Shown: in pieces, positions 17,040 to 33,509 of the stretch
Position numbering within the stretch: position 1 is the stretch's first letter
Layout: every line of letters begins with the position of its first letter
From: a virus
Lineage: Duplodnaviria; Caudoviricetes
IMG/VR virus record: IMGVR_UViG_3300037466_001900
Span: 1,608-65,607 of that record
Length of the DNA stretch: 64,000 bases
Direction: 5' to 3' (one strand)
Made by a program: the position numbers and the translations under genes
Notes under the pieces: generated by a model
Databases searched by the model: none
What the model saw: only the letters and a program-made list of their open reading frames with translations
What the model was told of the DNA's origin: nothing

Positions 17040-17498
17040 CTATGCCCTTAGCTGAAGCTGCTCCTTGGGTAATTGGATAAGCTCCCTTCCCGCCCTACGC
17101 CACCATTCGATCGCATCCGGATGTGGGTAGATTTCCCGGCAGACAATTCGTTTCGCCGAGGTGCCTAGCAAAAGCTTGACACAGGACAGGCACGGAGAGG
17201 CGGTCACGTAAACCGTGTCGACCTTCCACGGGTCGCTGAGCAGCAAGCAGGCGTTCTGCTCTGCATGTATGGCCTCGCACTTGTCGAGGCCTTCGCCCGA
17301 CCCATACGTTGCGCCTGGGCAAGGTTCGCCTTCCGAACAGTGGGGGCGACCGCTAGCCGGCCCATTGTAGCCGGTAGCCATGATCCTCCCCCTAGCATCA
17401 ACTATAACGCACCCAACCTGGCGTCGGGGGCATGTGCCGCGCTGTGCAATGGTCTCGGCGACCCTAAGCCACGTTTCATCCCTCGAAGGTCTTGTCAT
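17040..17498 (-). CDS. dCMP deaminase
   Basis: HAE and PCLSC Zn motifs; CPRRQVGCVIV; ATGYNG. Confidence 0.92.
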   Translation of the reverse strand: MTRPSRDETWLRVAETIAQRGTCPRRQVGCVIVDARGRIMATGYNGPASGRPHCSEGEPCPGATYGSGEGLDKCEAIHAEQNACLLLSDPWKVDTVYVTASPCLSCVKLLLGTSAKRIVCREIYPHPDAIEWWRRAGRELIQLPKEQLQLRA

Positions 17499-17689
17499 AC
17501 CTCAATCCCAGAAGAGTTTTGCATACTCCTATACTCCTCAAAAAGCAGCCTAGGATTAGACCACCCACTGGACCACCATTGACGGGGTTCAGCCTCTGAG
17601 TAAGGGTTCATAGAATGCGAAAACCCGTCCAGATAGGCGTGTTGACCAGCAACGTAGAACTTCTTTCTCTCTTCTTCATTATAGGTCAT
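17495..17689 (-). CDS. Rmf/CrpP-fold-like small protein
   Basis: Start re-placed at ATG 17689; GQHAYLDG...NPY...WWSSGW pattern. Confidence 0.5.
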   Translation of the reverse strand: MTYNEEERKKFYVAGQHAYLDGFSHSMNPYSEAEPRQWWSSGWSNPRLLFEEYRSMQNSSGIEV

Positions 17690-19074
17690 ACTAAACCTCC
17701 TTTCAGCTCCGGGAACAAGGGACACTCGGCTCGGTGCCAACACATCTTGCAGGCACCCGCCTGGTTCGAATAGCCGCCGAGACGGCAGAAGTCCTCTTTG
17801 GCCTTAGTGACCTTGGGATTGGGCTTCAAGACCCTGTGGCCCGTGGTTATGAACGTGTCGCGATTTATGAACGCCTGGACTTGCTCAGCTACGTAGGTCG
17901 TGAACTGCAGGGGCATCGACTTGCCGGTCTGCTTGATCCCCCGCTGGCCATCTGAATTATAGGGTTCCCAGACTTCCCGACCAGGCCCCTCTTCGTCATG
18001 GTGGAACAGGAAGTCGTCGGGGAAACCCTGGATCGCCGCCCGTTCCCGCACAGACAGTGGAGAGCGCCGGATGGGGTGAATGGGATTGTAGCCGCCTGAG
18101 AGAACTGGACAGAAGCCCTCCCACTTGGGATTAGTCGTTCCAGGGCGAACCTTCTGTTCACCTGCCGGCGAATAGTACTTCAGGTTCTTACCCCAGTCAC
18201 CCGTCTTGAACAATTCGCTGAGTTCACCCCAGCTAGACCGTTCGCCATACCATCGCATATTGACGTATCGGCCTGGAACATATGTAGGGTCGACAAACGC
18301 GTGATTTGGAACACCGCCGGCGGGCACATCGAGGAAACGCCCGATAACATCCTTGAGAACCAAGCCATGCTCTTTCTCTCCTGGCACAAAAACGAAACCT
18401 TCGGATTTCTTGGCCCCGATGATGAACATCCGGTTTCGGTGCTTCTGGATATTGCCGTAACCCCAGTTGCTGATCCACTCAGGGAAGAGATCGTAGTCAG
18501 GAAGCATCCTGACATATTCGCTCATGGGCAATGGGATAAAACTATCGGGCAGGTCGTCCATCAAGAAGAAGCGCGGCTGGAGCTCGGCTACCAGTTTAAG
18601 GAAGAGCGGGAGGTCCGAGACATCCTCTCCTCGCGTTGCCTGATACTCCCCGTTACCTGCAACGACTGAATGTGAGAGCGAGGAATAGCGTCCACACTCA
18701 GGATGACCAAGGGCCAGGTCGATAGACCCTGGCAACATGTTCTTGGGAACATCATCCAGTCCTCGAGCATTGAAGGCACCGGGAAAGTAATTACAGAAAG
18801 TCGAGTCACCGGTCTGTCTCCTGAACCTATAGTAGTCGCGCCACTCGATATTGCCAACGACCTTATAGCCCAAGAGGTGCGGTCCGATCAGCATCGAGCC
18901 GACGCCGCTGGTTATTCCGAACGCCGTGAGCGGCCGCATGCTGGGCAGTTCGCCGACTGGCTCCTGGAACACTGGCATTCGCTTATACTTGGCCATAGTC
19001 GGCTTATCGAGGAGCCCGAACCGCTCCTCGATCGAGTCGGCCTTTCTATGTTGCCACGTTGCTGATTTAGACAT
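17686..19074 (-). CDS. Divergent C5-cytosine DNA methyltransferase-like enzyme
   Basis: Motifs in order: I (TSGVGS), IV (HPECGRYS, Cys127), VI (DDL for ENV), VIII (QKHRNRMFIIG), IX (REraAIQGFPDDF), X (QTGKSMP, Lys385); C-terminal Cys cluster. Confidence 0.85.
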   Translation of the reverse strand: MSKSATWQHRKADSIEERFGLLDKPTMAKYKRMPVFQEPVGELPSMRPLTAFGITSGVGSMLIGPHLLGYKVVGNIEWRDYYRFRRQTGDSTFCNYFPGAFNARGLDDVPKNMLPGSIDLALGHPECGRYSSLSHSVVAGNGEYQATRGEDVSDLPLFLKLVAELQPRFFLMDDLPDSFIPLPMSEYVRMLPDYDLFPEWISNWGYGNIQKHRNRMFIIGAKKSEGFVFVPGEKEHGLVLKDVIGRFLDVPAGGVPNHAFVDPTYVPGRYVNMRWYGERSSWGELSELFKTGDWGKNLKYYSPAGEQKVRPGTTNPKWEGFCPVLSGGYNPIHPIRRSPLSVRERAAIQGFPDDFLFHHDEEGPGREVWEPYNSDGQRGIKQTGKSMPLQFTTYVAEQVQAFINRDTFITTGHRVLKPNPKVTKAKEDFCRLGGYSNQAGACKMCWHRAECPLFPELKGGLV

Positions 19075-19330
19075 CTTTCAAAACCTCCCTGGCATGTGTC
19101 AGGGGTAGGCTTTCCCCCGCATGGTAAACCTTATAGAAACCGTCGAGCTGTTGCTCGCATTTAGCAGTATGGTCGACAAGGAGCTCGAGGGCTTTACGAA
19201 GGCGAGCGGCCTTCTCGGCGGCCAGGATAAACCCCTGAACCCGCTTGACCGCTTCGTAAGGCCCGTGGACGAACAGGCGGGTCGATCCGTCTCCCACCCC
19301 GATCGTGGTTTCATAATCAGCCACGACCAT
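19067..19330 (-). CDS. Hypothetical protein
   Basis: Coupled ORF inside the modification operon. Confidence 0.55.
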   Translation of the reverse strand: MVVADYETTIGVGDGSTRLFVHGPYEAVKRVQGFILAAEKAARLRKALELLVDHTAKCEQQLDGFYKVYHAGESLPLTHAREVLKDV

Positions 19331-19511
19331 GGACCTTTATGTAGACAAACCAGATAGGGGACAGAATAATGCAGGTCACAAAGGTCAGAGCCAGGACGAA
19401 CCAATTATGAGGTTCTCCTAGGATCTGGTCTTTGTGCTCTATAAAGTCAAAGACTGTAAGAGCGAACCCGCAAACTATCCAGGCAAATGCTATGGAGGAC
19501 AACAACGTCAT
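19317..19511 (-). CDS. Small two-TM membrane protein
   Basis: Two hydrophobic helices; ATGA overlap. Confidence 0.55.
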   Translation of the reverse strand: MTLLSSIAFAWIVCGFALTVFDFIEHKDQILGEPHNWFVLALTFVTCIILSPIWFVYIKVHGRG

Positions 19512-20224
19512 TGGTTTGCTCCATTCGTTTCGAGATCACCCTGATGGACGTAGCGAATATGAGCATGGTCCTTCACCAAGTCGTGGTGGTCGGGCGGCAT
19601 CCAGCCTTCGGGCTTCACTACGTCGAACGTCGAACCCCGCTTGGACTGGTCCGCGGTCTCGGCCCGGACCTTGGCCATGTTAGCCGCCTGAACGCGCTTC
19701 CACGCTTCATGGAAGATTGTTGGTCCAAACTGGAGATAGGCAGCTCCCAGGACGACGTAGGTTAGATCGACGAGAGCGTCGAGCTGCTGATGAAGCCCCA
19801 TTGCGATCCTGCGATGGTCAGGCTTCCCGTCGTCCGAGGTGAGCGCCTCAACTAAGCCTTCCTGCTCGGTCTCCCACTCCTCGAACTCCTCTCGAATGAA
19901 CTTGCTCCGGAAGTCGAAGAGTTCAGGCTCCAAGATCCTGGGCTTACCAACATACTCAAGGCCGAACTTCTGGTGGAATGCAGCAATGTCCAGCATGAGG
20001 TGCGGGGCTTCGGCTCCAGTAACGTGAAGGCCTTTCTTGATCATCTCGGACTGGGCCTTCAGGACCTCGGTCACGTACGACATGGGACCTGGCCCAAGCC
20101 TCCTACCCGCAGCGTTGGCCGCCGAGACCATCATTCGGACTACTCCCTCAGCTTCCTCGAGCTTGAACTCGAAGACAACTTCTTCACCTTGCTCATCAGC
20201 AACCTTAAGTTCTTCCGTAATCAT
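19508..20224 (-). CDS. MazG-like/PRA-PH nucleotide pyrophosphohydrolase (dUTPase/dCTPase-like)
   Basis: FHQKFG, IREEFEE, DALVDLTYVVLG, VQAANMAKV, VVKPEGW.PPD motifs. Confidence 0.85.
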   Translation of the reverse strand: MITEELKVADEQGEEVVFEFKLEEAEGVVRMMVSAANAAGRRLGPGPMSYVTEVLKAQSEMIKKGLHVTGAEAPHLMLDIAAFHQKFGLEYVGKPRILEPELFDFRSKFIREEFEEWETEQEGLVEALTSDDGKPDHRRIAMGLHQQLDALVDLTYVVLGAAYLQFGPTIFHEAWKRVQAANMAKVRAETADQSKRGSTFDVVKPEGWMPPDHHDLVKDHAHIRYVHQGDLETNGANQ

Positions 20225-21537
20225 TGTTCCACCTCCGATATGAATGCGTCTACTAACTCAATCCTGTATCCTATGCCGCCGGTCTTCACCGCCTCGGTCT
20301 TCAGCGGGTGCTTCGCTCGGTTTATGATCCGATCGGGGACGACACCTTTGAAAGCACGCTTTAACGCCTGCTTCTGGGTGCGCATCTCTCGGGGGAGCGA
20401 GAGCCCGTGGGCAATGACCGCCGGCGCCAAGTAAGGCGACCTAAGCTCGATTGTCTCCTTCATCATCACTCGATCGAGCCGTGGCAAGTGGTAATATGGA
20501 AGCTCGCAGAAAACATCCGACCATTGACTATCGTATTCCGCAGCCCGTCTATAGCCGCCAAACACTTCGTCTGCGCCATCCCCAGTCAAGCACACATTGT
20601 AACCCGCGGCCGATACCGCCTTAGCCAGTTGGACCTGTGGAACCAGGGAACCCAGGTCGAGAGGAGCCTGCATAATCCGAACGGCCTCCCTCATGGTTGG
20701 GGGCCGAGTGAAGGATGAGAAGTTATCGAGAAGCGTGACCTCGGGTGGTAGGAATTCACCTTCACCATTCTCAACCGAGAAAGCGTCGACTTCCCTGCCC
20801 AGTATATCCTTTAGGGTGTAATAGATGATCGACGAGTCAAGGCCGCCCGATAGAAGGAGGGCGACAGGAAGCTCGCCGATAAGCCGGTTCTCGATCGCCT
20901 GGGTAACTGCATCACGGAGGTATCCAGCCTGGGGCACCATCCACCACTTCCAATAGGTCTCTTCATGGATACCTATATCACTAACCGTGATCCTGGTGCC
21001 AGGCCGCATCTGAACGATGCCTTCATAAGGTGTTCGACCTGAGTAGTCGTATCCCCACTTAATGCAGTTGGCAAGGTAGGTCTGGTCAAAAGCCGGCCGA
21101 CGCTGAAGCATGAACATAGGTTCTAGCTCGGAACAGAAGATCCTGTACTTCGGCCAGAAATACATCGGCTTGATGCCGAGGTGGTCAGTGTAAACCGTAG
21201 CCCCATATTTCGTAACTGAGGCTGCGGCCCAGAACCCGTCCGTGTTATGGAAAACGGCTTCGTCGACTAGAGCGGAAAGCAAGTGCATCTGCTCTCCAGC
21301 CTGGTGGTTGAAGAATTCCCCTACAAAGCCGTAAAGGCTAGATCGCCCTTCAAAAGGCTGGTTAGCATCTTCCGTCCTATCCTGAATAGCCAACCGAACG
21401 TGAGCGAAAGTCCAGCCAGCAAAATTCTTGGCTGAAACATGACCCTTCTCTCCATCGCCCCTATGGCTCATAGCAGCCAAGGCGAGCTCAATCTGTTCAG
21501 GCAGATATGTTGACGGGGTTAGGAGGACGCCGCACAT
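20221..21537 (-). CDS. Asparagine-synthetase-like glutamine amidotransferase (Ntn GATase plus PP-loop), compact 438 aa
   Basis: N-terminal MCG, RLAIQD, GEFFN, D.LGIKP, SGGLDSS, GDGADEVFGGY, ELRSPYL. Confidence 0.88.
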   Translation of the reverse strand: MCGVLLTPSTYLPEQIELALAAMSHRGDGEKGHVSAKNFAGWTFAHVRLAIQDRTEDANQPFEGRSSLYGFVGEFFNHQAGEQMHLLSALVDEAVFHNTDGFWAAASVTKYGATVYTDHLGIKPMYFWPKYRIFCSELEPMFMLQRRPAFDQTYLANCIKWGYDYSGRTPYEGIVQMRPGTRITVSDIGIHEETYWKWWMVPQAGYLRDAVTQAIENRLIGELPVALLLSGGLDSSIIYYTLKDILGREVDAFSVENGEGEFLPPEVTLLDNFSSFTRPPTMREAVRIMQAPLDLGSLVPQVQLAKAVSAAGYNVCLTGDGADEVFGGYRRAAEYDSQWSDVFCELPYYHLPRLDRVMMKETIELRSPYLAPAVIAHGLSLPREMRTQKQALKRAFKGVVPDRIINRAKHPLKTEAVKTGGIGYRIELVDAFISEVEQ

Positions 21538-22064
21538 TTAATTTTCTCCAACAAGTTCTCATAGCTGTCACTTGGCCATGAGTAATGCACAATAGGCACT
21601 AGGCCCGAGAGGGAGCTAATCCTTCGGTCATACGCATTCACGATCGCCGGGTAATTCTTGAGGACCCAGTCGAGGTGGTCCTGAGACTTGTGGGACTTTA
21701 CCGCCATGGAGATGTGCGAGTGCATGAACTTCGCCGACCCCGCTTTGCAGTAGACCAACACCAGGCCGAGCTCCTGGACCTCCCTGTCCAATCGGTATAG
21801 CGGCTCGTAAAGGTCCCGGCCCATCAGAGGCCCATAAACGGTTTCGCTGATCTGAGGTAAGCGATCAACCAGGACGGTCTCACCCCGATCGGCCCGCCAT
21901 TTACAGTCCCATATGATCTGGAGCTTGGCATCCCACGCCTCCCGATCCTTGGGAGGTCCCCCACTGTGGCTTACCTCAACGTCAAAGGTCTCGGCCAGCT
22001 TGGCTAGAAGGGTCGACTTCCCCGACCCGTCCGGGCCTTCAACTACGATCATCCTTCGCTGCAT
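21519..22064 (-). CDS. P-loop deoxynucleoside monophosphate kinase
   Basis: IVVEGPDGSGKST Walker A, LVDR motif; start re-placed at ATG 22064. Confidence 0.82.
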   Translation of the reverse strand: MQRRMIVVEGPDGSGKSTLLAKLAETFDVEVSHSGGPPKDREAWDAKLQIIWDCKWRADRGETVLVDRLPQISETVYGPLMGRDLYEPLYRLDREVQELGLVLVYCKAGSAKFMHSHISMAVKSHKSQDHLDWVLKNYPAIVNAYDRRISSLSGLVPIVHYSWPSDSYENLLEKIKCAASS

Positions 22065-22830
22065 CTTCCCTCCCCTTCTCCCATGCGGTGACTGCCACCG
22101 GAGCAACTAACGCAGCCAGGTTTTTCATAGCCCTGGCGTAGACCTGGATTTCATATTGTGCGTGTGGGTCATCCCGGAGTGTCAAGAACCGGAAGAGGTT
22201 CAACAAGTTGACCGTAGCAAACATGTGACTGTAGGTATTGACCGGCAGGACCGATCGAGCGAGCTCCCGGGGCCAGCCGTTTAAAAGTAGCCGGCGATAA
22301 AGATCGAAGGCATCTTCGCAGTGTTCGCGAAGCATCTCAACCTCCCGCTCTCGAGCCTGGAGGTTATCAAGGTTTTCGCCTCCTACCTCCCTGGCCTGTT
22401 TGTTGCTCGTCGACTGACGCCCAATCAAGGCCGGATTAGGGACATAGAATTCAGTCGGCAATTCCCGATAGCGGGCCGACAGCTCATTGTATCCCCAAGT
22501 GCGGTGACGATGCCACTGGCGAAAGACAAAGATGGGGGCCTTCACCTCAAAGGTCAGGGTGACCGCCTCGAATGGGGATGTGTGGCTATGTTTCCACAGA
22601 TAGTTGATTAACCGCTGATCGCTACCTTCGTCTTCGCCGGCTCGCCAGGCAGCGTCGTACGATACGCGGGCCGCTCGAACGATTGAGATGTCACCACCCA
22701 TGAAATCGACGAGCCGGACGAAGCCGTAGTCAAGGCAATTGATGACCCCCGTCGATCGGTTTTTCTGGAATACCGATCCGGCACCTTCTGATAGGTCGTG
22801 ATAGCGGCTTTCCGCTTCTTGGTCTGTCAT
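22039..22830 (-). CDS. thyX: Flavin-dependent thymidylate synthase
   Basis: RHRTWGYNELSAR signature, HTSPFE, AQYEIQ.YA. Confidence 0.95.
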   Translation of the reverse strand: MTDQEAESRYHDLSEGAGSVFQKNRSTGVINCLDYGFVRLVDFMGGDISIVRAARVSYDAAWRAGEDEGSDQRLINYLWKHSHTSPFEAVTLTFEVKAPIFVFRQWHRHRTWGYNELSARYRELPTEFYVPNPALIGRQSTSNKQAREVGGENLDNLQAREREVEMLREHCEDAFDLYRRLLLNGWPRELARSVLPVNTYSHMFATVNLLNLFRFLTLRDDPHAQYEIQVYARAMKNLAALVAPVAVTAWEKGREDAAKDDRS

Positions 22831-23036
22831 CGAATAGCCTCCTCCGAATTGTCCCTATAGTTTATCCAAAAACCTCCATTAGTAATGCTTACCCGAGGCT
22901 GCGGAAAAAGATCGCTGGGGATATGCGCACAGTTAGCATCCAGGATCAAGGAGACTATAGCCGCCCCACCGTCGTCCATGTCATAATTCGCAGGGATACC
23001 TACGCTATGGTGGAAACAGTTAGGTTCGTCTTGCAT
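22827..23036 (-). CDS. Hypothetical protein
   Basis: Coupled small ORF. Confidence 0.45.
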   Translation of the reverse strand: MQDEPNCFHHSVGIPANYDMDDGGAAIVSLILDANCAHIPSDLFPQPRVSITNGGFWINYRDNSEEAIR

Positions 23037-24327
23037 TCGCGTACTCCTTTACCATGGAAAGGACGGTGGCCTGGGAAATCTTCTTCGCCTCCAAAACTTC
23101 TAAGAGGAGGTCGTCCACCGTATCAACTGCTCGGAGGAAATGAAACACCGGCAGAGTAATTTGTCCTTGGCGGTCGATCCGCGCTCGGGTCTGGGCCATC
23201 TGCTCGAATGAGAACGAGGCCGAATAGATAACCATCGTGTGCGAGCCATACTGCAAATTAAGCCCATGCCCGCCCGATTGGGGATGGAGGAACAACAACG
23301 GTATTTCCTTGTTGTCCCACTCCTTCTGGGTCCAGCCCTTCTCCAAAGAAACCCCGTGAGGGAATTTCTTCTTTAAGGCAGCAAGTTCGTGCTGGAAGTG
23401 GTAGACCACAATGACGGGTGAACCAGTTCCTTCCAGGATCATCTCAAGGGCATCTAGCTTCCCAGTATGAATTTGCTTCACTTCATGGTCGTCGTCGTAT
23501 ACAAAGCCGCTAGCAACTTGTCGCAACTTCATTAGCGCGGCCGCAGCATTAACAGCGGTGATAGTCTTCTCCTTGCCCAGGTCGACAAAGGCCCGGCGCT
23601 CCATCTCCTTGTAGATCTTCCTAGCGGCTAGAGGAAGCTCAATGTCGATGATGTTCTCGATCGGTTTTTCCGCCGAGGCCTCCAGCTCAACTCGGAAGAT
23701 CAAGTCACTGATAATCTTGGTGACCTTTTCAGTTGCCCCCTCTCGAGGTCCGAACTTGTAGCCCATATAGTCGAGCTGCTCGAAAAACTTAGACTTGAAC
23801 CGAAAGAAGGCTGTGTCGAGGCGTTGGCCAAGATCCAGGATGAAGATCTGGCTCCAGAGGTCCATTAGTGAGTTAGGGTTTGGCGTCCCTGTATAGATGT
23901 TCCTCCGCTCAAAGTGCTTCAGGTATTTACGCAGCTTCTTGAACCGTTTAGTCGACGGGTTCTTGAACATGGAAGACTCATCGATCGCCAGGACCTTAAA
24001 GGTCCGCGCTTCGAGGGCTTCGGGCAGGAGCTCGGGGTTCACCAAGTAAATGTCCGCTTCGGCTTCCAGGGCCTCACTCCGTTCGCGGGGCGACCCTCTA
24101 ACAAGGGAGAAGGTGAGCCCCTTGGTCATATCCCATTTCTTAGCTTCGGTCTCCCACACGGTTTCGATGACCATGATCGGGCCAACCAGGATGATGGGCT
24201 TAGGAAAGTCTACGAACGCGTGGAGGGCGATCGCGGTCTTGCCCAGCCCCATGTCAATGAAGAGACCAGCGTGGGGGTGGGCCTTGAGATATTCTACCCC
24301 TTCAACCTGATAGTCTCGGAGCTTCAT
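23020..24327 (-). CDS. SNF2-family helicase
   Basis: LRDYQ, DMGLGKT, DESS, TGTP, HPQSGGHGLNLQ, QTRARIDRQGQ. Confidence 0.92.
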   Translation of the reverse strand: MKLRDYQVEGVEYLKAHPHAGLFIDMGLGKTAIALHAFVDFPKPIILVGPIMVIETVWETEAKKWDMTKGLTFSLVRGSPRERSEALEAEADIYLVNPELLPEALEARTFKVLAIDESSMFKNPSTKRFKKLRKYLKHFERRNIYTGTPNPNSLMDLWSQIFILDLGQRLDTAFFRFKSKFFEQLDYMGYKFGPREGATEKVTKIISDLIFRVELEASAEKPIENIIDIELPLAARKIYKEMERRAFVDLGKEKTITAVNAAAALMKLRQVASGFVYDDDHEVKQIHTGKLDALEMILEGTGSPVIVVYHFQHELAALKKKFPHGVSLEKGWTQKEWDNKEIPLLFLHPQSGGHGLNLQYGSHTMVIYSASFSFEQMAQTRARIDRQGQITLPVFHFLRAVDTVDDLLLEVLEAKKISQATVLSMVKEYANARRT

Positions 24328-24758
24328 GGGTTGAGCTCCTTAACCCCTACTAGGATAGAAGGAGGGAGAGGGATATGTTGGTGAAGGGGCCGCCAAAGAT
24401 GGAGACAGAAAGGGTAGTTGTTTATATACTCTTTGACTGGGTGTAACTGCATCGCTACCTCATCGGGAAAGAAGAATAGGTCCTTGATGAAGTTCATTTC
24501 TTCCCAGGTTGGAGTTCGGTAAGGTAGCGACACACTCACGTGGTCCCAGTTAGCTCCGGCTTCATTGCGACCCCAGACCACCCCGCCTTTGCTGGCTATT
24601 ACTCGGAGCCCTACCTGTGGTACTTGCCGGCTAACTGGGTTTCTAGATGAGAAGGGGACGACGAAAGCTCCTGCATAATCACGTATGTCTGTAGGCACTT
24701 CGCCCATAGGGTGGGGAATACGAAACTTATCGAAACGGTTGTCGCTAAAGCTACGCAT
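24324..24758 (-). CDS. Conserved phage protein (DUF7694-like)
   Basis: WDHVSVS...PTWEEM..IKDLFF...CLHLW. Confidence 0.6.
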   Translation of the reverse strand: MRSFSDNRFDKFRIPHPMGEVPTDIRDYAGAFVVPFSSRNPVSRQVPQVGLRVIASKGGVVWGRNEAGANWDHVSVSLPYRTPTWEEMNFIKDLFFFPDEVAMQLHPVKEYINNYPFCLHLWRPLHQHIPLPPSILVGVKELNP

Positions 24759-25051
24759 TATTCTGCCTCCAGTTCCAAGACCCTACGGCGACACAGCTTG
24801 ATCACCTGCTCACACTGGTCTATATCGAACAGGATTATGTGGCAATCGCTAGGAGGTATCTTCATCCTGCGGCCGAGCCAGCGATATGCCCTCTTCCTGG
24901 TCATGTGCCCATTCTTCCACAGGGCATCAAACTGCTGGTGAGCACGAGCCCGGGCCTTGGCCAGGGGCGACCCAGGCGTGGCACTAAATCCGCATGGGTC
25001 GTTCCGATCGGCCATTAGGCGATCTAGCAGTTCTTCGTCGTGTTCGTTCAT
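24758..25051 (-). CDS. DUF3268-like protein (C-terminal part)
   Basis: RARAHQQFDALWK..MTRKRAY.WL...HI..FDIDQC; start re-placed at ATG 25051. Confidence 0.6.
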   Translation of the reverse strand: MNEHDEELLDRLMADRNDPCGFSATPGSPLAKARARAHQQFDALWKNGHMTRKRAYRWLGRRMKIPPSDCHIILFDIDQCEQVIKLCRRRVLELEAE

Positions 25052-25437
25052 TGTCCACTCTCGAATAGCAGTTGGATCAACATATTGGTCAGGCCGTCGT
25101 TCTGTTTCTGGATCTCGTCTATCGCTCCCCGCTGTCCAGGAAGCCACGAAGGCATAAGCAACAGGGCGAGCTCGTCCTGCTTGGTGAAGCACATCCATGA
25201 TCGCTGGACCGTTTTCGTCACCACATTTGCTCGCATGATTGGCTCGAACTTCAGGTCGACGATCCGCATGATCTCTTCAATAGGCATCCTATCATGCACT
25301 TTCCTAGGGGTCACCATAGATGGAACCACTAAGCGATACCGGCAGCCGTGGTCTTCAATATCTCGCTCGGTAAAGCCCGGAATGTTCACCACCGTGATTG
25401 GCTCCAGGGTAGCGTCGTCGTAAATCACGAACCTCAT
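25048..25437 (-). CDS. Hypothetical protein
   Basis: ATGA-coupled ORF. Confidence 0.6.
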   Translation of the reverse strand: MRFVIYDDATLEPITVVNIPGFTERDIEDHGCRYRLVVPSMVTPRKVHDRMPIEEIMRIVDLKFEPIMRANVVTKTVQRSWMCFTKQDELALLLMPSWLPGQRGAIDEIQKQNDGLTNMLIQLLFESGQ

Positions 25438-25670
25438 GGCAGCAACTCCGCGGTGAAATAATAATTGGACTTACCTTCTACGGGCTGAACACTTTCTGGG
25501 TCGAAGCCACAAGAGCTTCCGAGGGCCCGCCATACACGCATAGCATTCTCATACGGTGTCCCAAAGAGGTAATTGCCTTTACCATCCCACATAGCTGGAG
25601 TTGGTTTTGACGCATCCAGTAACTTCTGGTATTGCTCTTCGGTCAACTGGAATTCTTTCCTCATCGCCAC
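25434..25670 (-). CDS. Hypothetical protein
   Basis: Coupled ORF. Confidence 0.55.
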   Translation of the reverse strand: MAMRKEFQLTEEQYQKLLDASKPTPAMWDGKGNYLFGTPYENAMRVWRALGSSCGFDPESVQPVEGKSNYYFTAELLP

Positions 25671-26164
25671 ACCTCCAAAGGCGTTGAATAGGATAGCATC
25701 AGCGGATGCCTGGGGCTTCCATCATCGCACGTGCCCCAGCACATGAGCTGCTTGCCTCGCTGATGGACCAGGGCGACGACCTCGTCAACCCTGTAACGAA
25801 GGTTAGCAGGAACCTTGTCGATCCGACCCCAGCCGGCAATGATCAGCTCCGCTCGCCCGATCGCGGACAAGAGATAGTTGTTGCAGCTATGTCCGACAGG
25901 ATCGGAAACCTTAGCCAGTTCACGGACATCAGTTGCCCTATAGGCAAAGAGGTTGGCGACTAGCCAATGGTTCACCCCCAGCCGATCGCCGAAGCCATAT
26001 AGTTTTCGAATGGACTGGTCATCAACACGTTCGTCGGCCGTGGATGGGTTGACCCCTATCCACAGAGCCGTGACCCCCTCCCGTGCGAATGACCGGCCCA
26101 GGAGCCAGCGATAATGACCACACTTGCTTATGTCGGCGAAGGTGAAGAAGGGAATGTCAGTCAA
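25661..26164 (-). CDS. DUF1643 family protein
   Basis: CGHYRWLL.R, IGVNPSTAD..DD.SI, NLFAYRATD, PRHPL; TTG start after GAAGGAG. Confidence 0.85.
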   Translation of the reverse strand: MTDIPFFTFADISKCGHYRWLLGRSFAREGVTALWIGVNPSTADERVDDQSIRKLYGFGDRLGVNHWLVANLFAYRATDVRELAKVSDPVGHSCNNYLLSAIGRAELIIAGWGRIDKVPANLRYRVDEVVALVHQRGKQLMCWGTCDDGSPRHPLMLSYSTPLEVWR

Positions 26165-26366
26165 CTGGTACTCCTTCTCGTTCAAGCTTTTCTTCCAGGG
26201 CGGCAACCATCCAGTCCTGCTGGGATATGCCCAACCTCCAAGCCGCCGATCGGACCTGGGCACTTAGCGTCAGCGGGACGTAGACTTGTTTAGCTTCTAA
26301 CCCGAGATGGCCACGGATACCCCTCTGGTTGTTCCTGACAGGTCGGTATCCTCCATGGTGGCTCAT
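26157..26366 (-). CDS. Ribbon-helix-helix-like DNA-binding protein
   Basis: VYVP..L...VR.AA...GISQQDWMVAALEEKL. Confidence 0.55.
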   Translation of the reverse strand: MSHHGGYRPVRNNQRGIRGHLGLEAKQVYVPLTLSAQVRSAAWRLGISQQDWMVAALEEKLEREGVPVD

Positions 26367-26617
26367 CCCTGACATGCCTCTTTGATCTCTTCAACTGTTG
26401 GTTCGTAGTCCTCGGGCCCGATAGCGTCCGCCTTCTTGGTGCAGTTCCGACAGAGGTGCATATCCCGTTGAATGGACAGATCGAAGTAGCTTCGGACCTC
26501 CTCGTCTACTGCTTCGGCCAATGCTGTTTTAATCTCCTCAGCTGGGTCCATTGAGACCCTGAACTCAGAGCCGCATACATCGCACTCTAGGGCGGCGGTA
26601 ATGTATTTAAGACTCAT
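26363..26617 (-). CDS. Zn-binding hypothetical protein
   Basis: CDVC and C..C pairs. Confidence 0.6.
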   Translation of the reverse strand: MSLKYITAALECDVCGSEFRVSMDPAEEIKTALAEAVDEEVRSYFDLSIQRDMHLCRNCTKKADAIGPEDYEPTVEEIKEACQG

Positions 26618-26655
26618 GATAATTCACTCCCCTCCTGTCTATAGGGCGGCGCGGG

Positions 26656-26808
26656 TCATGGCAGCCCTGCAAGTCGATGCAATTCACGAATTGCCTCTCT
26701 CAAGTTCTTTCGCGTTTCCTCGGTGAGCGACTTATCGGCAATATCTAGGGCGTCCATGATGTGTGATACTGCGGCTCGCAGATCGGCTGCTCGTGATAGT
26801 TCCATCAT
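26656..26808 (-). CDS. Hypothetical 50 aa protein (not in ORF track)
   Basis: MMELSRAADLRAAVSHIMDALD...RLAGLP*; ATGA overlap with RBS. Confidence 0.5.
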   Translation of the reverse strand: MMELSRAADLRAAVSHIMDALDIADKSLTEETRKNLREAIRELHRLAGLP

Positions 26809-26960
26809 TCCTCTCCTGTCTGTAGGGCGGGATGGGCTAGGAGCTTCTCCAAAATAGCGTTTTGGCGGTTGATTTCTGCTCCAATACGTTCATATCCGTC
26901 GCTCACCCGCTTCATAGCGGCTAACAACTGACGGGCGCTCCTATCTACTGTGTCGCTCAA
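26805..26960 (-). CDS. Hypothetical 51 aa protein (not in ORF track)
   Basis: TTG start; ends HPALQTGEE*. Confidence 0.5.
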   Translation of the reverse strand: MSDTVDRSARQLLAAMKRVSDGYERIGAEINRQNAILEKLLAHPALQTGEE

Positions 26961-26962
26961 TT

Positions 26963-27178
26963 TCACTCTCCTCCTGTCTGTAGGGCGGCGCGGGCTTCTG
27001 CTAGCGCATCAGCAGCCATGTAAAGCACCTTATATCGGCAAGTATCCGTATGGGTCTCGGGCTGTGGGCTAGTGTTCGCCTCATGGTAGCAATTGCACGA
27101 CGCAGCCATCGCCACACGCAACCAGCTTTCAGCGCGCTCAATGTCCGCGAGCGCAATCTTCTCTGCTGTGTCGTTCAT
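26963..27178 (-). CDS. Hypothetical protein
   Basis: MNDT start; ends ARAALQTGGE*. Confidence 0.6.
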   Translation of the reverse strand: MNDTAEKIALADIERAESWLRVAMAASCNCYHEANTSPQPETHTDTCRYKVLYMAADALAEARAALQTGGE

Positions 27179-27702
27179 GGCTGCTGGGCGGCGCTATCGT
27201 GCTCAATCGCTTGGATTTGTGCGACTGTGGCCGTGTTAAGTTCGCCTGCGAGATACTCTTTCGCGAAGTTCAATGCGCTTCGCAACCTCTCTCGTTCTTG
27301 CATTAGAGGGGCTACGACTTCGATTAGCTCGCGGAGTTCGTGAGCGTCGATTTCAGTTATGCCGCCACACGACTCCGCATCCAGCAAGCGTCTCTGAAGC
27401 ATTCCGATCTTCTCGCCGATACCAACCATAGCCTGTCCGTTGATGTCGATCGGGAACAGCTTGCCGATCAAGCGCGCTTCGCCGTAGTTGCGGGCAATGA
27501 CGATCTCGCGCCCATCTTCGAGCACGATGCTGGCCGGGCGATGGCCGTGCCCGGAGCAGCTTGCCCTAGTCCTCAGACCTGCGGCATTGAGCGCCCTGAC
27601 CAGCGGCACGATCTCAGTGTCAACCTCGATGGGGCGACCGCCGATCTCCATGATCTCGACGCTCTGACCGTTCGCGCCAAGCCTATCCTCTGTGTCGTTC
27701 AT
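27175..27702 (-). CDS. Hypothetical protein
   Basis: Start re-placed at ATG 27702; IVPLVRALNAAGLRTRASCSGHG motif. Confidence 0.6.
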   Translation of the reverse strand: MNDTEDRLGANGQSVEIMEIGGRPIEVDTEIVPLVRALNAAGLRTRASCSGHGHRPASIVLEDGREIVIARNYGEARLIGKLFPIDINGQAMVGIGEKIGMLQRRLLDAESCGGITEIDAHELRELIEVVAPLMQERERLRSALNFAKEYLAGELNTATVAQIQAIEHDSAAQQP

Positions 27703-27932
27703 GGCTGTGAGACCTTTGCTCTGACGGCTACCCATCGTTGAGTTGCAATTCTGGCTGTCTTGCGGCTTACCTCATCACCGAACCAAAGGTTCTCGCAAAG
27801 CACGTTCCCTGCCTCCACAAGTTCCCGTATCAGCGCGGCGGCTTCGCGGATTTCAGCTACACGTTGAGGATGAACGCCGGGAAGTGTTTCAACATAATTC
27901 GCTGTCGCCGTCAGCCTCTTAAGCAATGTCAT
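27699..27932 (-). CDS. Hypothetical protein
   Basis: ATGA-coupled. Confidence 0.55.
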   Translation of the reverse strand: MTLLKRLTATANYVETLPGVHPQRVAEIREAAALIRELVEAGNVLCENLWFGDEVSRKTARIATQRWVAVRAKVSQP

Positions 27933-28210
27933 GGGATTGTGTCCTGATTGGGTGACTGCCGAGCGTTAATCATCTCGCGCGTCTCGAACATGTCGTGGCC
28001 GCACTCGGGCCGCCAACGCAGGTTCCAATCGCGAAGGTTTACGGGGTCTTGGCCGATATCGCGGGCGCAGTCGGAGCAGTACCAACTGTGCGAGCCGTGG
28101 TTCCACCAAAGCGCGGGTTCGGCTTGGCAAGAGCGTCGATTGCAAGCCCCGCCTTCGTGGCCCTTGTTCGGCTTCTCTGGAGCGTCGAGAGGCAAGTCAC
28201 CGTAACTCAT
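27929..28210 (-). CDS. Zn-finger hypothetical protein
   Basis: CNRRSC and YCSDCA. Confidence 0.6.
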   Translation of the reverse strand: MSYGDLPLDAPEKPNKGHEGGACNRRSCQAEPALWWNHGSHSWYCSDCARDIGQDPVNLRDWNLRWRPECGHDMFETREMINARQSPNQDTIP

Positions 28211-28212
28211 AC

Positions 28213-28668
28213 CTATTCACCCTCCTGTGATGACATTGCTGCGATAGCTGCGCGGGGCGGTTCGGGAAGCGGCATCCAGTGGGTTACATTGTAGAGTAGC
28301 GCCTCGTCGCTCGGCTGTTCACCGTCAAAGATGGTGGCGCAGTGAACCCATGCGTCTCGCGTTCGCGACCACCAGCATCCAGCAACTCTTTCGTTCTCGT
28401 AGCGCTCCCTTTCGGCGGCCCAAAGATCGACGATTTTGTTCTTCGGCGCAGTTTCAATCGGCTGCCACCCAACAACCTCGTCAGTCACTACGGTAGGGCG
28501 GCGGTTCCAAGCTTCGGCACAAGCTGAAGGACTGCGCTGCGCCGGGTCTATGGTCACGCCGCAGTCGTCGTTGAGGCAGTGGACATTCCATAGTCCGCGA
28601 TAGCGCTCGAATAGTTCGCCCTCGCTTCCGCAATGAGCGCACGGCATCAGCTTCACTTCACCTGACAT
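28213..28668 (-). CDS. Lar-like restriction-alleviation Zn-ribbon fused to DUF551-like domain
   Basis: LMPCAHCG...C..C...EAWNRR; GWQPIETAPK...THWMPLPEPP. Confidence 0.7.
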   Translation of the reverse strand: MSGEVKLMPCAHCGSEGELFERYRGLWNVHCLNDDCGVTIDPAQRSPSACAEAWNRRPTVVTDEVVGWQPIETAPKNKIVDLWAAERERYENERVAGCWWSRTRDAWVHCATIFDGEQPSDEALLYNVTHWMPLPEPPRAAIAAMSSQEGE

Positions 28669-29068
28669 TGCTTGAGCCTTCCTGTGATCTGGCGCGGAGG
28701 GCGGCGGCGGTTAGAGCGAGGGCGGGAATTGCGGCACGCACTTCCTTGCCTTCGGTAAACAGGTGACGGACTATCGCCTCAGCATGATCGGCGTAGGCAT
28801 CAACGCCCCACACCATCCCCTCCGGCACAAGTGTCATGGCTGCGTCTAGGAACGCTTCGCAAGCGAGCTTATCCGTGAACAACCCAAAACGGTGGTTCCA
28901 CTCTACCCATCGCCTAGTCGTCTGAAGGCGCAGCACGTTGGAATACATTCTGGCTGGCGGCGGGTCACAAAGCCGGAAAGCTTCTTCCAGCACTTCTGAT
29001 TGCTGCTCAGCCATCGCTTTCTCGCAGCGCTCGGCCAACTCCAACAGCTTATCACTTGTCATATTCAT
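28658..29068 (-). CDS. Hypothetical protein (Ea22-like accessory)
   Basis: LLELAERCE...LDAAMTLVPEG...PALALTAAALRAR. Confidence 0.6.
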   Translation of the reverse strand: MNMTSDKLLELAERCEKAMAEQQSEVLEEAFRLCDPPPARMYSNVLRLQTTRRWVEWNHRFGLFTDKLACEAFLDAAMTLVPEGMVWGVDAYADHAEAIVRHLFTEGKEVRAAIPALALTAAALRARSQEGSSNVR

Positions 29069-29919
29069 CGCATGCTGTTCCTTAAGTTCTCTCGGTCCTG
29101 CCTGAACATGTGGAGCGAGGTGATATGCATCCGAAAAGTCCCGGGCTGAACCTCGCCCCAGGTCTCCCGATCAATATTCTGGCATTGGTGGAGGACCCAG
29201 AGCAGAAGCCGAATAGTCAGATAGACGTCGTCCCGGAAGTGCCGAATGTAGTCGCACGACCGCATTGGATAGACCAGGTGGAGGAAGTCGCCAAAGTTGC
29301 CCATCGGCCGGCGGATGATATGATAGCCCAGGGTGCAGGGAACCCGCTTGCCCATTCTGGCCGCGGCCGTGTCCTCGGGGAAGAAGATTGGGAGATAGGC
29401 CTGGCGGGTCAGAGGATCGTCGACCAAAGTTTGCACCAGGTCACTTAAGTCCCCGACACCAAACCGGATGCCCCTAGCCTTGAGAGGCAGTTTCAGAAAC
29501 TCATCATCGTCGCTGGGCAGTCGTCCATCCACAGTCATGCCGGCATACTTCGGCCAGTATCGTTCGGCATAGCTATGATCGTACTGCGGCACATTCTCCC
29601 CCTCGCGGAGATGTGCCGCAGCCGACCGGGCGTATGGCCATATCTTCCAGGTCTCGCCTGGATTGATTGGCTCGCCGCTGACCCGTTCTTCTTCAAAGTG
29701 GCGATCGGCCCAGGGTAGGTTTGGCCGGATCACATCGGCAATGGTTCCAAGATCCTCCTCCCCTCGAAGATCGAGAGTAAAGGACCGGTTAAAGAGCTCG
29801 ACCATGGGTTGTGGAGCGTCCGCCGACTGCCACTTTTTAGCAGCCACTTCTGGCGCATCCAAGAACTCCTTGTTCAGGTGGTCAGTCAGCCGTTTGAACT
29901 GGTCGGTCAATGTATACAT
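29065..29919 (-). CDS. Thymidylate synthase homolog, dCMP hydroxymethylase/methylase-type
   Basis: RQAY, VPCT (catalytic Cys), RSCDYIRHFRDD with Asp at the E. coli TS N177-equivalent position; start at ATG 29919 after GAGGAG. Confidence 0.82.
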   Translation of the reverse strand: MYTLTDQFKRLTDHLNKEFLDAPEVAAKKWQSADAPQPMVELFNRSFTLDLRGEEDLGTIADVIRPNLPWADRHFEEERVSGEPINPGETWKIWPYARSAAAHLREGENVPQYDHSYAERYWPKYAGMTVDGRLPSDDDEFLKLPLKARGIRFGVGDLSDLVQTLVDDPLTRQAYLPIFFPEDTAAARMGKRVPCTLGYHIIRRPMGNFGDFLHLVYPMRSCDYIRHFRDDVYLTIRLLLWVLHQCQNIDRETWGEVQPGTFRMHITSLHMFRQDRENLRNSMR

Positions 29920-30184
29920 CGATGAACTCCTCAACCCCTCTTTTGCCATGAATTACCTCTGCATTAAACCCCATCTTCTGAAGAATTTTGATAAAGGCTA
30001 ACTGGACCCCTGTGGCCTTCTCCCCGTCCTTCTTGAGTTCACGAAAGAATACCCGCCCTGGAGGAAGCAGAATGAGACGATCGGGAATGCCACGATAGAG
30101 AGCGGCCGGCAACTTGAAACATTTGCCGCCGGCGCGCTCTATCGCCTTCCTAAGATCTTTCTCGTGGTCGGCTTCCTTGACCAT
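29882..30184 (-). CDS. VRR-NUC nuclease
   Basis: GIPDRLILLPPGRVFFRELKK...Q. Confidence 0.88.
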   Translation of the reverse strand: MVKEADHEKDLRKAIERAGGKCFKLPAALYRGIPDRLILLPPGRVFFRELKKDGEKATGVQLAFIKILQKMGFNAEVIHGKRGVEEFIDVYIDRPVQTAD

Positions 30185-30517: not shown

Positions 30518-30658
30518 TCACTTCTCCTTGCAGTCATCAGGTGGTGGGTTTTCGAGTAACATCTCGGCAACTCGGTTCCCAGGTTTAAACGATTTACGAA
30601 CGCAGCCACGCCAACAGGCTATCTTACTGCACTTACTAGGCCAAGGACCGTAGGTCAT
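30518..30658 (-). CDS. Small Cys-rich hypothetical protein
   Basis: ATGA overlap with the polymerase stop. Confidence 0.4.
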   Translation of the reverse strand: MTYGPWPSKCSKIACWRGCVRKSFKPGNRVAEMLLENPPPDDCKEK

Positions 30659-32699: not shown

Positions 32700-33509
32700 T
32701 TAGGGTTGAACGTCCGAACTCCCGGAACCGTCAGCTCCAGAGGTGTCGGCTCCAGAGGTGTCAGTCCCCGAAGTGTCGGCTCCAGAGGTATCAGTCCCCG
32801 AAGTGTCGGCTCCAGAGGTATCAGTCCCCGGAGTGTCGGTCGAACTGGCGCCCGAGGTATCGGCCCCAGAACCACTTGTATCCGTGCCTCCGGCGTCAGT
32901 GGGGGCCGGTGCGGGAGCCGGCGAAGCCGAACCACCTGCCGAGGCCACGATCGCGTCCAGCGCGGCCTGAGCGTTCCGAGCTGTGAGAATAGCCTGGGTC
33001 AGATCCACTGGCTGGTTATTGGCGGCCGCTTCCTGGGCAGCCTGGAGAGCAGCTTCGAGGTCCTTCATCTCAGGGCCAAGGGCAGCAGCATCAGCTGCAA
33101 TACCATCGAGAGCAGTTTGAAGGTCGTTGATGTCGGCCATTGTCTTGTCCATTTCCTTTTCTAGAGTAGTGAGTCGTTCATCGGTGGTGGGGTGGTGGGG
33201 TTTCATTTCATTGGGCAGCTCCCTTCTGCTTGTATGGACGATGTCGTGAGTGATCCCTGGGTCCTTCATTCTCGAGGGGTTCTGCAACTTGAAAAACTTG
33301 AACTCCTCAATCCGGTCCAGGACTGCCTGAATGTGATGGAGGTCTCCACCTTCAGTCATGAGGCAGCCGTGATAGTGCCATAGGACAGGTAGGGCGTGGA
33401 TGTCCCTGGCTCGAAAAATAATGACTGGTTCATCATCGGGAATTTCTTCCCCCGACACACGGTTAACGAACCGGCCATTCTCAAACTTGAACTTGCGGTC
33501 TTCAGCCAT
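32700..33509 (-). CDS. Bipartite hypothetical protein (conserved phage domain plus coiled coil and GTDTS/GADTS repeats)
   Basis: IFRARDIHALPVL N-domain; possible internal start; low-complexity tail. Confidence 0.65.
   Translation of the reverse strand: MAEDRKFKFENGRFVNRVSGEEIPDDEPVIIFRARDIHALPVLWHYHGCLMTEGGDLHHIQAVLDRIEEFKFFKLQNPSRMKDPGITHDIVHTSRRELPNEMKPHHPTTDERLTTLEKEMDKTMADINDLQTALDGIAADAAALGPEMKDLEAALQAAQEAAANNQPVDLTQAILTARNAQAALDAIVASAGGSASPAPAPAPTDAGGTDTSGSGADTSGASSTDTPGTDTSGADTSGTDTSGADTSGTDTSGADTSGADGSGSSDVQP
32731..32840 (-). repeat. 15/30-bp coding tandem repeat
   Basis: TCAGTCCCCGAAGTGTCGGCTCCAGAGGT(A/G) units at 32761, 32791 and 32821 (partial). Confidence 0.9.

Follow-up and report, generated by a model that had tools for sequence, protein, structure and literature searches.

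A thymidylate synthase homologue and an AsnB-like amidotransferase form the core of a phage gene module that may replace cytosine with an amide-bearing derivative

Bacteriophage T4 obtains its hydroxymethylcytosine through a kit of precursor enzymes, the gp56 dCTPase, the gp42 dCMP hydroxymethylase, the gp1 dNMP kinase, the cd dCMP deaminase and td. In thymidine hypermodification, 5-hydroxymethyldeoxyuridine (5-hmdU) is made as a nucleotide and is then tailored (PMC5889632, PMC8989533). In Synechococcus phage S-B43, CmoA makes carboxy-S-adenosylmethionine (carboxy-SAM) and CmoX writes 5-carboxymethylcytosine (5cxmC) at GC sites (Yang et al., Nat Commun 2025, PMC12783734; PDB 8YF3), and CmoY (SpCmoY), an AsnB homologue without a glutaminase domain, ligates glycine to 5cxmC in the DNA (PMC12783734). 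A second large cluster of such ligases has a glutaminase domain; ammonia is its predicted substrate (the product would be a plain amide), and no soluble protein was obtained (PMC12783734). This CmoA-CmoX-CmoY system, published in December 2025, is the closest published system to the one described here, a set of genes in a 64,000-nucleotide stretch of phage DNA (the whole stretch that was analysed, hereafter "the window"). The set includes a diverged homologue of thymidylate synthase (TS), an AsnB-like glutamine amidotransferase, a MazG-like pyrophosphohydrolase, a P-loop kinase, a dCMP deaminase, the flavin-dependent thymidylate synthase ThyX and a C5-cytosine-methyltransferase (MTase)-like protein (Table 1). 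The window comprises bases 1608-65607 of the 65,607-bp IMG/VR virus record IMGVR_UViG_3300037466_001900 and, given the direct terminal repeats of that record, is essentially a complete phage genome.

On balance we favour the reading that these genes constitute a module for replacing cytosine at the nucleotide level, with a DNA-level add-on, and that it gives an amide-bearing 5-substituted dCTP. There is a candidate here for each precursor role of the T4 kit, and the clearing of dCTP, the kinase, the deaminase and ThyX parallel T4, as the initial annotation of this DNA had proposed.

The TS homologue gives no Pfam match at E 0.01, and a phmmer search of the Protein Data Bank (PDB) with it returns MilA alone (E 0.018); profile methods are needed. 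With a profile built from 28 sequences of its family, hhalign gives a probability of 96.4% each to T4 gp42 and to E. coli ThyA, and despite the Pfam miss we judge the protein, on these profile matches, to be a genuine family member; its true start is probably the second Met of its open reading frame (ORF). The catalytic residues are kept and invariant, namely C205 (equivalent to Cys146) in the nucleophile motif RVPC-T/S-LGY, Y127 (Tyr94) and D233 (Asp169), and the family also keeps the Trp equivalent to that which binds the p-aminobenzoate ring in T4 dCMP hydroxymethylase. At the position of E. coli Asn177 stands an Asp (D241) that is invariant in the 28 sequences; the surrounding motif is RSCDxxRHFRDD, where T4 reads RSNDVVFGFRND and E. 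coli reads RSCDVFLGLPFN. The N177D change converts TS to a dCMP enzyme (PMC8670742, PMC13326640), and Asp is found at this position in natural dCMP and CMP enzymes. Because Asp occupies the Asn177 position, dCMP is the predicted substrate, and because ThyX is also present, the TS homologue is not expected to be the maker of dTMP. We consider it very probably cytosine-directed, in keeping with the target first suggested for this locus.

Is the TS homologue then simply a hydroxymethylase of the T4 type, as was initially thought? It shares with gp42 the Cys, the Tyr, Asp171, Asp179 and FRxD, but three of its features, as aligned, match no characterised member of the family. The Leu143 position is an invariant Arg (R202), where the hydroxymethylases have Asp or Glu (Asp145 in T4); the Leu172 position is Arg and the Gly173 position a nearly invariant His; and no Glu aligns with Glu58/60 (Glu60 in T4). 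By these residues the protein would not be a plain T4-type hydroxymethylase, and the pocket beside C5 appears cationic. The 5-hydroxy-dCMP synthases of RB69 and DLP3 (PMC13326640) are likewise TS homologues with Asp177 that act on dCMP, but they are marked by D169N and have Glu143, whereas here the Asp169 equivalent, Asp233, is invariant and is accompanied by Arg143. From the Arg and His residues of the pocket (143, 172 and 173) we infer a carboxylate, either on the substituent itself or on the molecule that traps a methylene intermediate.

The AsnB-like protein scores 166.8 bits against TIGR01536 (cut-off 267.1) and 102 against NF006949 (cut-off 499), and at 438 amino acids (aa), against the 554 positions of the AsnB model, it is missing about 100 C-terminal residues; by equivalog score and by length (about 550 aa) it would not be classed as asparagine synthetase B. 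The best solved relatives of its family profile are AsnB (1ct9, E 4.4e-32) and a hydroxyamidotransferase (7ylz, 1.9e-26), and it appears to be a genuine but sub-threshold member of the AsnB family. Its N-terminus reads MCG and its PP-loop SGGLDSS, and C2 and the glutamine-binding Arg, Glu and Asp (R48, E74 and D100) are conserved; of the 80 IMG/VR loci described below, 76 keep Cys2 and the PP-loop. All characterised members of the AsnB family that we know of adenylate a carboxylate and then form an amide. The relationship to SpCmoY is distant, BLASTP aligning the PP-loop only and hhalign giving a probability of 83% (E 8.6e-6), and isoelectric points are uninformative as to whether such ligases act on DNA or on nucleotides (the median of the AsnB-like family is 5.8, and SpCmoY has 5.8). 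In the MetaGPA supplements GATase_7 appears as depleted, and Asn_synthase is absent from them. A tblastn search of 50,697 phage records with the AsnB-like protein found only Streptomyces phage TurkishDelight (27% identity over 55%), and megablast of 17040-24327 against the same records gave no match; the AsnB-like and MTase-like genes were found in no cultured phage. We found no paper in the literature that pairs a TS homologue with an AsnB-like enzyme and none on 5-aminomethyl-, 5-carboxamido-, 5-carbamoyl- or 5-carbamoylmethyl-cytosine; nor does the literature searched describe a core that joins an Asp177/Arg143 TS homologue to a glutamine-dependent AsnB-like enzyme.

A single AsnB-like sequence used as query retrieved no related loci, but an alignment-based scan of IMG/VR did, yielding 349 AsnB-like relatives, of which 80 loci were kept and analysed with our own hidden Markov models (HMMs) and clustering. 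The AsnB-like gene is accompanied in these 80 loci by the deaminase in 78, the TS homologue in 71 (eight of the nine loci that lack it are 11.4 kb or shorter), MazG in 48, ThyX in 25, the MTase-like gene in 6 and CmoA in none. The constant core is the TS homologue, the AsnB-like gene and the deaminase, usually with MazG, and the Lys-type MTase-like gene (below) is a subclade add-on that was never seen without this core. The amidotransferase and the MTase-fold enzyme, proposed at first as a decorating pair, are thus not an obligate one. Nine contigs found through AsnB-like and MTase-like homologues carry the TS homologue, kinase, AsnB-like, small MazG-like, MTase-like and deaminase genes in near-identical order; the set adjoins PolA and SNF2 there, PolA is syntenic with the TS homologue, and the small MazG-like gene fills the same slot. 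The TS homologue, kinase, AsnB-like, MTase-like and deaminase genes are all present in 7 of 7 metagenomic comparison loci, and tblastn finds kinase genes of 27-36% identity in 9 of 9 comparison loci; ThyX is optional, since among the 7 metagenomic comparison loci whose PolA matches that of the window 4 are without it.

The module is found across three replication backbones. One contig (L016) with a different backbone (UDG, AAA_24 and an exo-bearing PolA) nonetheless has the kinase-like gene, the AsnB-like gene, the TS homologue and an MTase-like gene fused to an N6/N4 MTase domain, and there MazG and dCMP deaminase are fused in one 284-aa protein (L016:13164-14018). In a 75-kb contig binned with a Myxococcaceae metagenome-assembled genome (MAG), the AsnB, MTase, TS, MazG and deaminase genes form a single contiguous block. 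Most of the 80 loci belong to a PolB/UvsX/DnaB-type lineage in which the TS, AsnB and deaminase genes abut or overlap. Since the same genes recur together in every related contig examined, their arrangement is not due to chance, and both the co-occurrence across phage genomes and the single conserved functional module that had been predicted for them are upheld by this recurrence. As a separate observation, about 30-39 IMG/VR loci of the PolB/UvsX-type lineage (for example L050:6988-8328) have, just upstream of TS, AsnB and deaminase, genes for an N6/N4-MTase-like protein of about 320 aa and for a DUF1599-like protein ("nucleotide modification associated domain 1", E 0.0024).

This recurrence bears on the plainest explanation of the locus, in which nothing exotic is made, the kit raises the dTTP pool, the MTase-like protein is an ordinary site-specific m5C anti-restriction enzyme and the AsnB-like protein is an asparagine synthetase encoded by an auxiliary metabolic gene. 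It is true that each gene comes from a common family and that phages often carry deaminase, TS/ThyX, kinase and MazG genes. We nevertheless regard such an explanation as very unlikely, since Asp at position 177 is invariant in the TS family and ThyX is present besides, since the shortened, sub-cut-off AsnB-like protein is strictly syntenic with TS in unrelated backbones, and since the MTase-like protein departs from ordinary C5-MTases at three motifs (motif X Asn to Lys, ENV to DDL and PPC to PEC) in 112-120 of 121 homologues.

The AF2 model of the MTase-like protein has a pLDDT of 89.8 and aligns in VIA-align with M.HaeIII (Z 25.0), SpCmoX (8yf3, Z 23.5) and M.HhaI (Z 23.3), so the protein as modelled has the DNA C5-MTase fold; the hhalign probability of its family to SpCmoX is 96.7%, although the identity is only 18-22%. 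The invariant motifs of the family are GHPEC127G, MD173DL, Q210xxR213xR215 and KQTGK385xMP. The catalytic Cys127 lies in (G)HPEC instead of PPC in 112 of the 121 homologues, ENV has become DDL in 115, and motif X (KQTGK-x-MP) has Lys, K385 here, in 120, where SpCmoX reads ERVGRMVPP. The hmmsearch and hhalign alignments of the family stop short of motif X (there is an insert of about 20 aa), and Lys385 was placed at the position of M.HhaI Asn304 and SpCmoX Arg350 because the motif matches and because the structural alignments end 22 residues past each of these residues. This motif X position decides between methyl and carboxymethyl transfer (PMC12783734), and from motif and model together Lys385 appears to occupy it. 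Because the adenosyl contacts (Glu, an aromatic residue and Asp) are kept, E77, W78 and D108 aligning with the SpCmoX SAM contacts E47, F48 and D69, the cofactor is likely to be of the SAM type. At its N-terminus the protein has a conserved extension, and at its C-terminus a tail with four Cys. Engineered M.MpeI N374K (cited in PMC12783734) carries the same Asn-to-Lys change in motif X, but it is an engineered CpG enzyme, whereas here the Lys is natural and family-wide and is accompanied by changes in motifs IV and VI. Two further observations concern this family. Some homologues are enlarged to 617-820 aa by inserted Hint/intein and homing-endonuclease domains (P0124, P0156, P0195, P0199 and L098:5794-8253), and others are fusions of the Lys-type C5-MTase-like domain with an N6/N4 DNA MTase domain (L016:10001-12343; P0237, P0238 and P0241). 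Inteins are usual in genes that are indispensable to phages.

A C5-MTase homologue with a basic residue at the Asn304 position, paired with an AsnB homologue and with ATP-dependent amide formation (predicted here), is the CmoX/CmoY principle (PMC12783734), and the combination can thus no longer be called unprecedented, as it was in the initial annotation. Could the locus be a DNA-level pathway of that kind and nothing more? The MTase-like protein would then use carboxy-SAM from the host to write 5cxmC at a motif, the AsnB-like enzyme would convert it to 5-carbamoylmethylcytosine, and the TS homologue, MazG, kinase and deaminase would be an independent supply kit. The placement of Lys385 suits this explanation, as do the findings that M.MpeI N374K uses carboxy-SAM, that the CmoA of the host suffices in E. 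coli and that ammonia is the predicted substrate of the glutaminase-domain ligase cluster (PMC12783734); moreover, the MTase-like gene never occurs apart from the AsnB-like gene in about 13 contexts. We consider it rather unlikely all the same. In 74 of the 80 IMG/VR loci the AsnB-like gene and the TS homologue have no MTase-like gene beside them, and therefore the substrate of the AsnB-like enzyme cannot generally be 5cxmC made by the MTase; the usual companions of the AsnB-like gene are the TS homologue, MazG and the deaminase, and the module, Asp177-type TS included, moves as a unit between backbones. The CmoX signature (SPPC with Arg350; PMC12783734) is replaced here by HPEC with Lys, and ENV by DDL, and the AsnB-like enzyme, unlike SpCmoY, has a full glutaminase domain.

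The supply of carboxy-SAM also speaks against a purely DNA-level pathway. No CmoA (TIGR00740) was found in the 65.6-kb genome, and there is no CmoA-like ORF in the 80 loci. The sole host hint that we found came from a scan of GTDB species genomes, where an alphaproteobacterial MAG carries a frameshifted, degraded fragment of the MTase-like gene (L099:9920-10797) on a chromosomal contig of 2.8 Mb. The genes around the fragment are for hydrogenase maturation and sensor kinases, and a group II intron (reverse transcriptase) and a Mu-type transposase adjoin it. That MAG has no CmoA above the cut-off, and of 151 genomes sampled evenly from its class, just 5 have a CmoA that passes the cut-off. A search with PolA gave no host (the best match, at 36% identity, is a Rhodoferax phage). 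The rarity of CmoA in the class of the likely host weakens the carboxy-SAM reading.

We return to cytosine replacement at the nucleotide level, for which, from the observed gene identities, residue patterns, fold and co-occurrence, we infer the following chemical steps. The MazG-like enzyme would hydrolyse dCTP to dCMP, and the deaminase would divert part of the dCMP to dUMP, with ThyX making dTMP. The Cys of the TS homologue would attack C6 of dCMP and build a substituent on C5 that either bears a carboxylate or is trapped by a carboxylate-bearing molecule; the carboxylate is proposed because of the chemistry of the AsnB family and because Arg, Arg and His line the TS pocket. The AsnB-like enzyme, if it follows its family, would adenylate this carboxylate and turn it into an amide with glutamine-derived ammonia, after which the P-loop kinase and the nucleoside diphosphate kinase (NDK) of the host would raise the product to the triphosphate and the phage PolA would incorporate the modified dNTP. 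In this subclade only, the MTase-like protein would in addition bind DNA, flip out a cytosine-type base and use an adenosyl cofactor. It might carboxymethylate those cytosines that had escaped replacement, to be finished by the same amidotransferase, or it might act on the base that is already modified, in which case Lys385 could contact the substituent and the changes of Glu to Asp and Gln to Gly could make room for it.

Candidates for the substituent before amidation are a glycine-type adduct on a C5 methylene, 5-carboxymethyl and 5-carboxyl. The end products suggested in the initial annotation, for example 5-carbamoylmethylcytosine, 5-aminomethylcytosine or an amide-capped adduct, are possible as well. 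In the MnmE-MnmG reaction a pyrimidine C5, activated by a Cys, takes the methylene of methylenetetrahydrofolate (CH2-THF), which is then trapped by glycine (cmnm5, a carboxylate) or by ammonium (nm5, an amine), and cmnm5U made by MnmEG is thus a precedent for a glycine-type adduct; the fold is unrelated and the substrate is a tRNA uridine, and we offer it as a lead for the TS homologue only. The N-alpha-glycinylthymidine of phages is another precedent (PMC11472151). The TS homologue could accordingly work by a route A, in which the methylene intermediate is trapped by an amino acid as in MnmEG, or by a route B with a non-folate electrophile. A more specific proposal, which is possible but which we put forward as doubtful, is that the TS homologue is a new pyrimidine-C5 enzyme whose cationic active site (Arg143, Arg172 and His173, with no Glu58) installs a carboxylate group on dCMP, that the AsnB-like enzyme amidates it at the nucleotide level to give a genome-wide amide-bearing cytosine new to DNA, and that the MTase-like protein is a second, DNA-level writer which feeds the same amidation.

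The modified base might instead replace thymine, if the product of the TS homologue (for example 5-hydroxymethyl-dCMP) were deaminated to a 5-substituted dUMP. Two points would suit this possibility: translational coupling links TS, AsnB and deaminase in most loci, and dCMP deaminases can accept 5-substituted dCMP. However, the presence of ThyX in the window and in 25 of the 80 loci argues that dTMP is wanted, the MazG-deaminase fusion fits removal of dCTP, and the routes of thymine hypermodification that we know of all use dUMP hydroxymethylases of the Asn177 type; a thymine target seems to us the least probable of the explanations considered here and most unlikely. The known thymidine pathways do resemble the present module in that a TS homologue makes a modified nucleotide which other enzymes tailor to amino-acid or amine adducts such as N-alpha-glycinylthymidine, but they differ in their uracil/thymine target, in their 5-HMUDK kinase, in the aGPT-PPlases that act on DNA and in having no AsnB-like enzyme.

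Several points weigh against an amide-bearing cytosine made at the nucleotide level. In the profile alignment Glu58/60, described as conserved throughout the TS, CMP hydroxymethylase and dCMP hydroxymethylase enzymes, aligns to Asn77, which is variable across the TS family; this may mean that another co-substrate is used, or the alignment may be in error here, and an invariant Glu-Arg pair lies in an insert close by. Installation of a carboxylate-bearing group is not known for any TS-family enzyme. The same cationic TS pocket is present in Brevundimonas phage Strzyga, which has no AsnB-like gene, and also in phage PMBT14 save for an Asn at the Leu172 position, and because AsnB-less phages have it the pocket alone does not imply amidation. 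In the AsnB-like family a Val replaces the oxyanion Asn74 of AsnB, and our own kinase HMM gave no match in 67 of the 80 IMG/VR loci. If C5 were fully substituted, a Cys-dependent C5 transferase would be left without an obvious substrate. Finally, every step is argued from sequence or predicted structure, and no cultured phage has the set.

Two cultured phages, PMBT14 and Strzyga, encode the kinase, MazG and the TS homologue (PMBT14 also has an annotated dCMP deaminase) and neither an AsnB-like nor an MTase-like gene, and with this kit they are possible test systems for the product of the TS homologue. We found no literature on DNA modification in PMBT14, Serbin or Tlacuache. Directly upstream of their TS homologue, PMBT14 (L010:8144-8932) and Strzyga (L011:8093-8932) encode a "hypothetical" protein of 262-279 aa whose motifs, GPCxQ and YRSTE, suggest a second TS-fold paralogue that has diverged very far; identity between the two proteins is 26%. 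The 269-aa ORF beside PolA in the window (32700-33509) was considered as an equivalent of this paralogue and was ruled out on comparison.

The window carries these genes in a leftward chain that runs from about 36 kb to 17 kb. The chain begins with a DUF2800/PD-(D/E)XK nuclease pair, an Enc34-type single-stranded-DNA-binding protein, a winged-helix protein, the 269-aa ORF and PolA; it continues with two small ORFs, the TS homologue, a run of small genes (including Lar-like and DUF1643 genes) and an SNF2 helicase; and it ends with ThyX, the P-loop kinase, the AsnB-like gene, the MazG-like gene, two small ORFs, the C5-MTase-like gene, an 82-aa ORF and the deaminase. Adjacent ORFs overlap by 1-68 nucleotides, and for this reason the stretch from PolA down to the deaminase is read as one coupled operon. 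The six genes initially assigned to one leftward operon are indeed all on the minus strand, in overlapping ORFs and with Pfam or phrog matches, and the TS homologue that had been placed about 6 kb upstream beside PolA lies 6.2 kb upstream of thyX and is separated from PolA by two small ORFs, its identity resting on phrog_160 and hhalign. In place of the glycosylation of T4, the tailoring candidates here are the amidotransferase and the MTase-like protein. The reported lack of other tailoring enzymes stands for GT-2 glycosyltransferases (PF00535) and carbamoyltransferases (PF02543), none of which was found in the 65.6-kb genome; other glycosyltransferase families and aGPT-PPlases were not searched. 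Taken together, the initial observation is confirmed and its interpretation partly supported.

Table 1. Genes of the candidate module and its PolA-side neighbours in the window
Feature	Position	Strand	Supporting match
dCMP deaminase (152 aa), last operon gene	17040-17498	-	PF00383 E 1.4e-19; phrog_174 E 9e-47
Lys-type C5-cytosine-MTase-like protein (462 aa), Cys-rich C-terminal tail	17686-19074	-	PF00145 E 7e-9 only
MazG/PRA-PH-like nucleoside triphosphate pyrophosphohydrolase (238 aa), candidate dCTPase	19508-20224	-	PF01503 E 3e-5; phrog_671 E 3.5e-21
Compact AsnB-like glutamine amidotransferase/PP-loop synthetase (438 aa)	20221-21537	-	PF00733 E 1.2e-33 and GATase_6/7
P-loop nucleotide kinase (195 aa or shorter)	21519-22106	-	phrog_761 "thymidylate kinase" E 3.9e-14; weak Pfam dNK, Ploopntkinase3
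ThyX flavin-dependent thymidylate synthase (263 aa)	22039-22830	-	PF02511 E 1.5e-50
Diverged thymidylate-synthase/dCMP-hydroxymethylase homologue (294 aa; 284 aa from Met at 29919)	29065-29949	-	phrog_160 E 4.6e-24
Conserved 100-aa ORF between PolA and TS homologue	29882-30184	-	weak VRR-NUC, PF08774 E 0.003
Family A DNA polymerase (PolA)	30655-32607	-	PF00476 E 7.3e-18

Among the smaller genes, the 100-aa VRR-NUC-like ORF recurs in six related contigs (39-50% identity by tblastn), each time with PolA on one side and the TS homologue on the other, and whether it is a member of the module is uncertain. A Lar-like restriction-alleviation domain is fused to DUF551 at 28213-28668 (PF14354 E 1.4e-9, PF04448 E 1e-7), and this fusion would be a second anti-restriction device of the operon. 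A DUF1643 protein (25661-26263, E 7.8e-32) recurs in the operon of two related contigs. The 82-aa ORF between the MTase-like gene and the deaminase (17495-17743) matches ribosome modulation factor below threshold (PF04957 E 7e-6; 26.4 bits, cut-off 27.9) and is not conserved across related loci. There are no tRNA genes in the window. Among public sequencing runs, a rhizosphere metagenome available as contigs is the only one listed that contains the phage in full, and it may be the source sample; no RNA run with the phage was listed.

Hypermodifications of phage DNA determine which restriction, CRISPR and other nuclease defences work, and they have supplied enzymes for epigenome sequencing. The module described here has at least 349 relatives in IMG/VR and spans PolA-type and PolB-type phages. 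Should the proposed chemistry prove correct, the natural DNA alphabet would gain a new cytosine derivative; a TS-family enzyme of new outcome and an amidotransferase directed at nucleotides or at DNA would be further additions. The MTase-like protein would then be a natural, Lys-type relative of the engineered carboxymethyltransferase of DM-Seq-style methods, and CmoX/CmoY would be one branch of a wider family of carboxylate-to-amide DNA chemistry.

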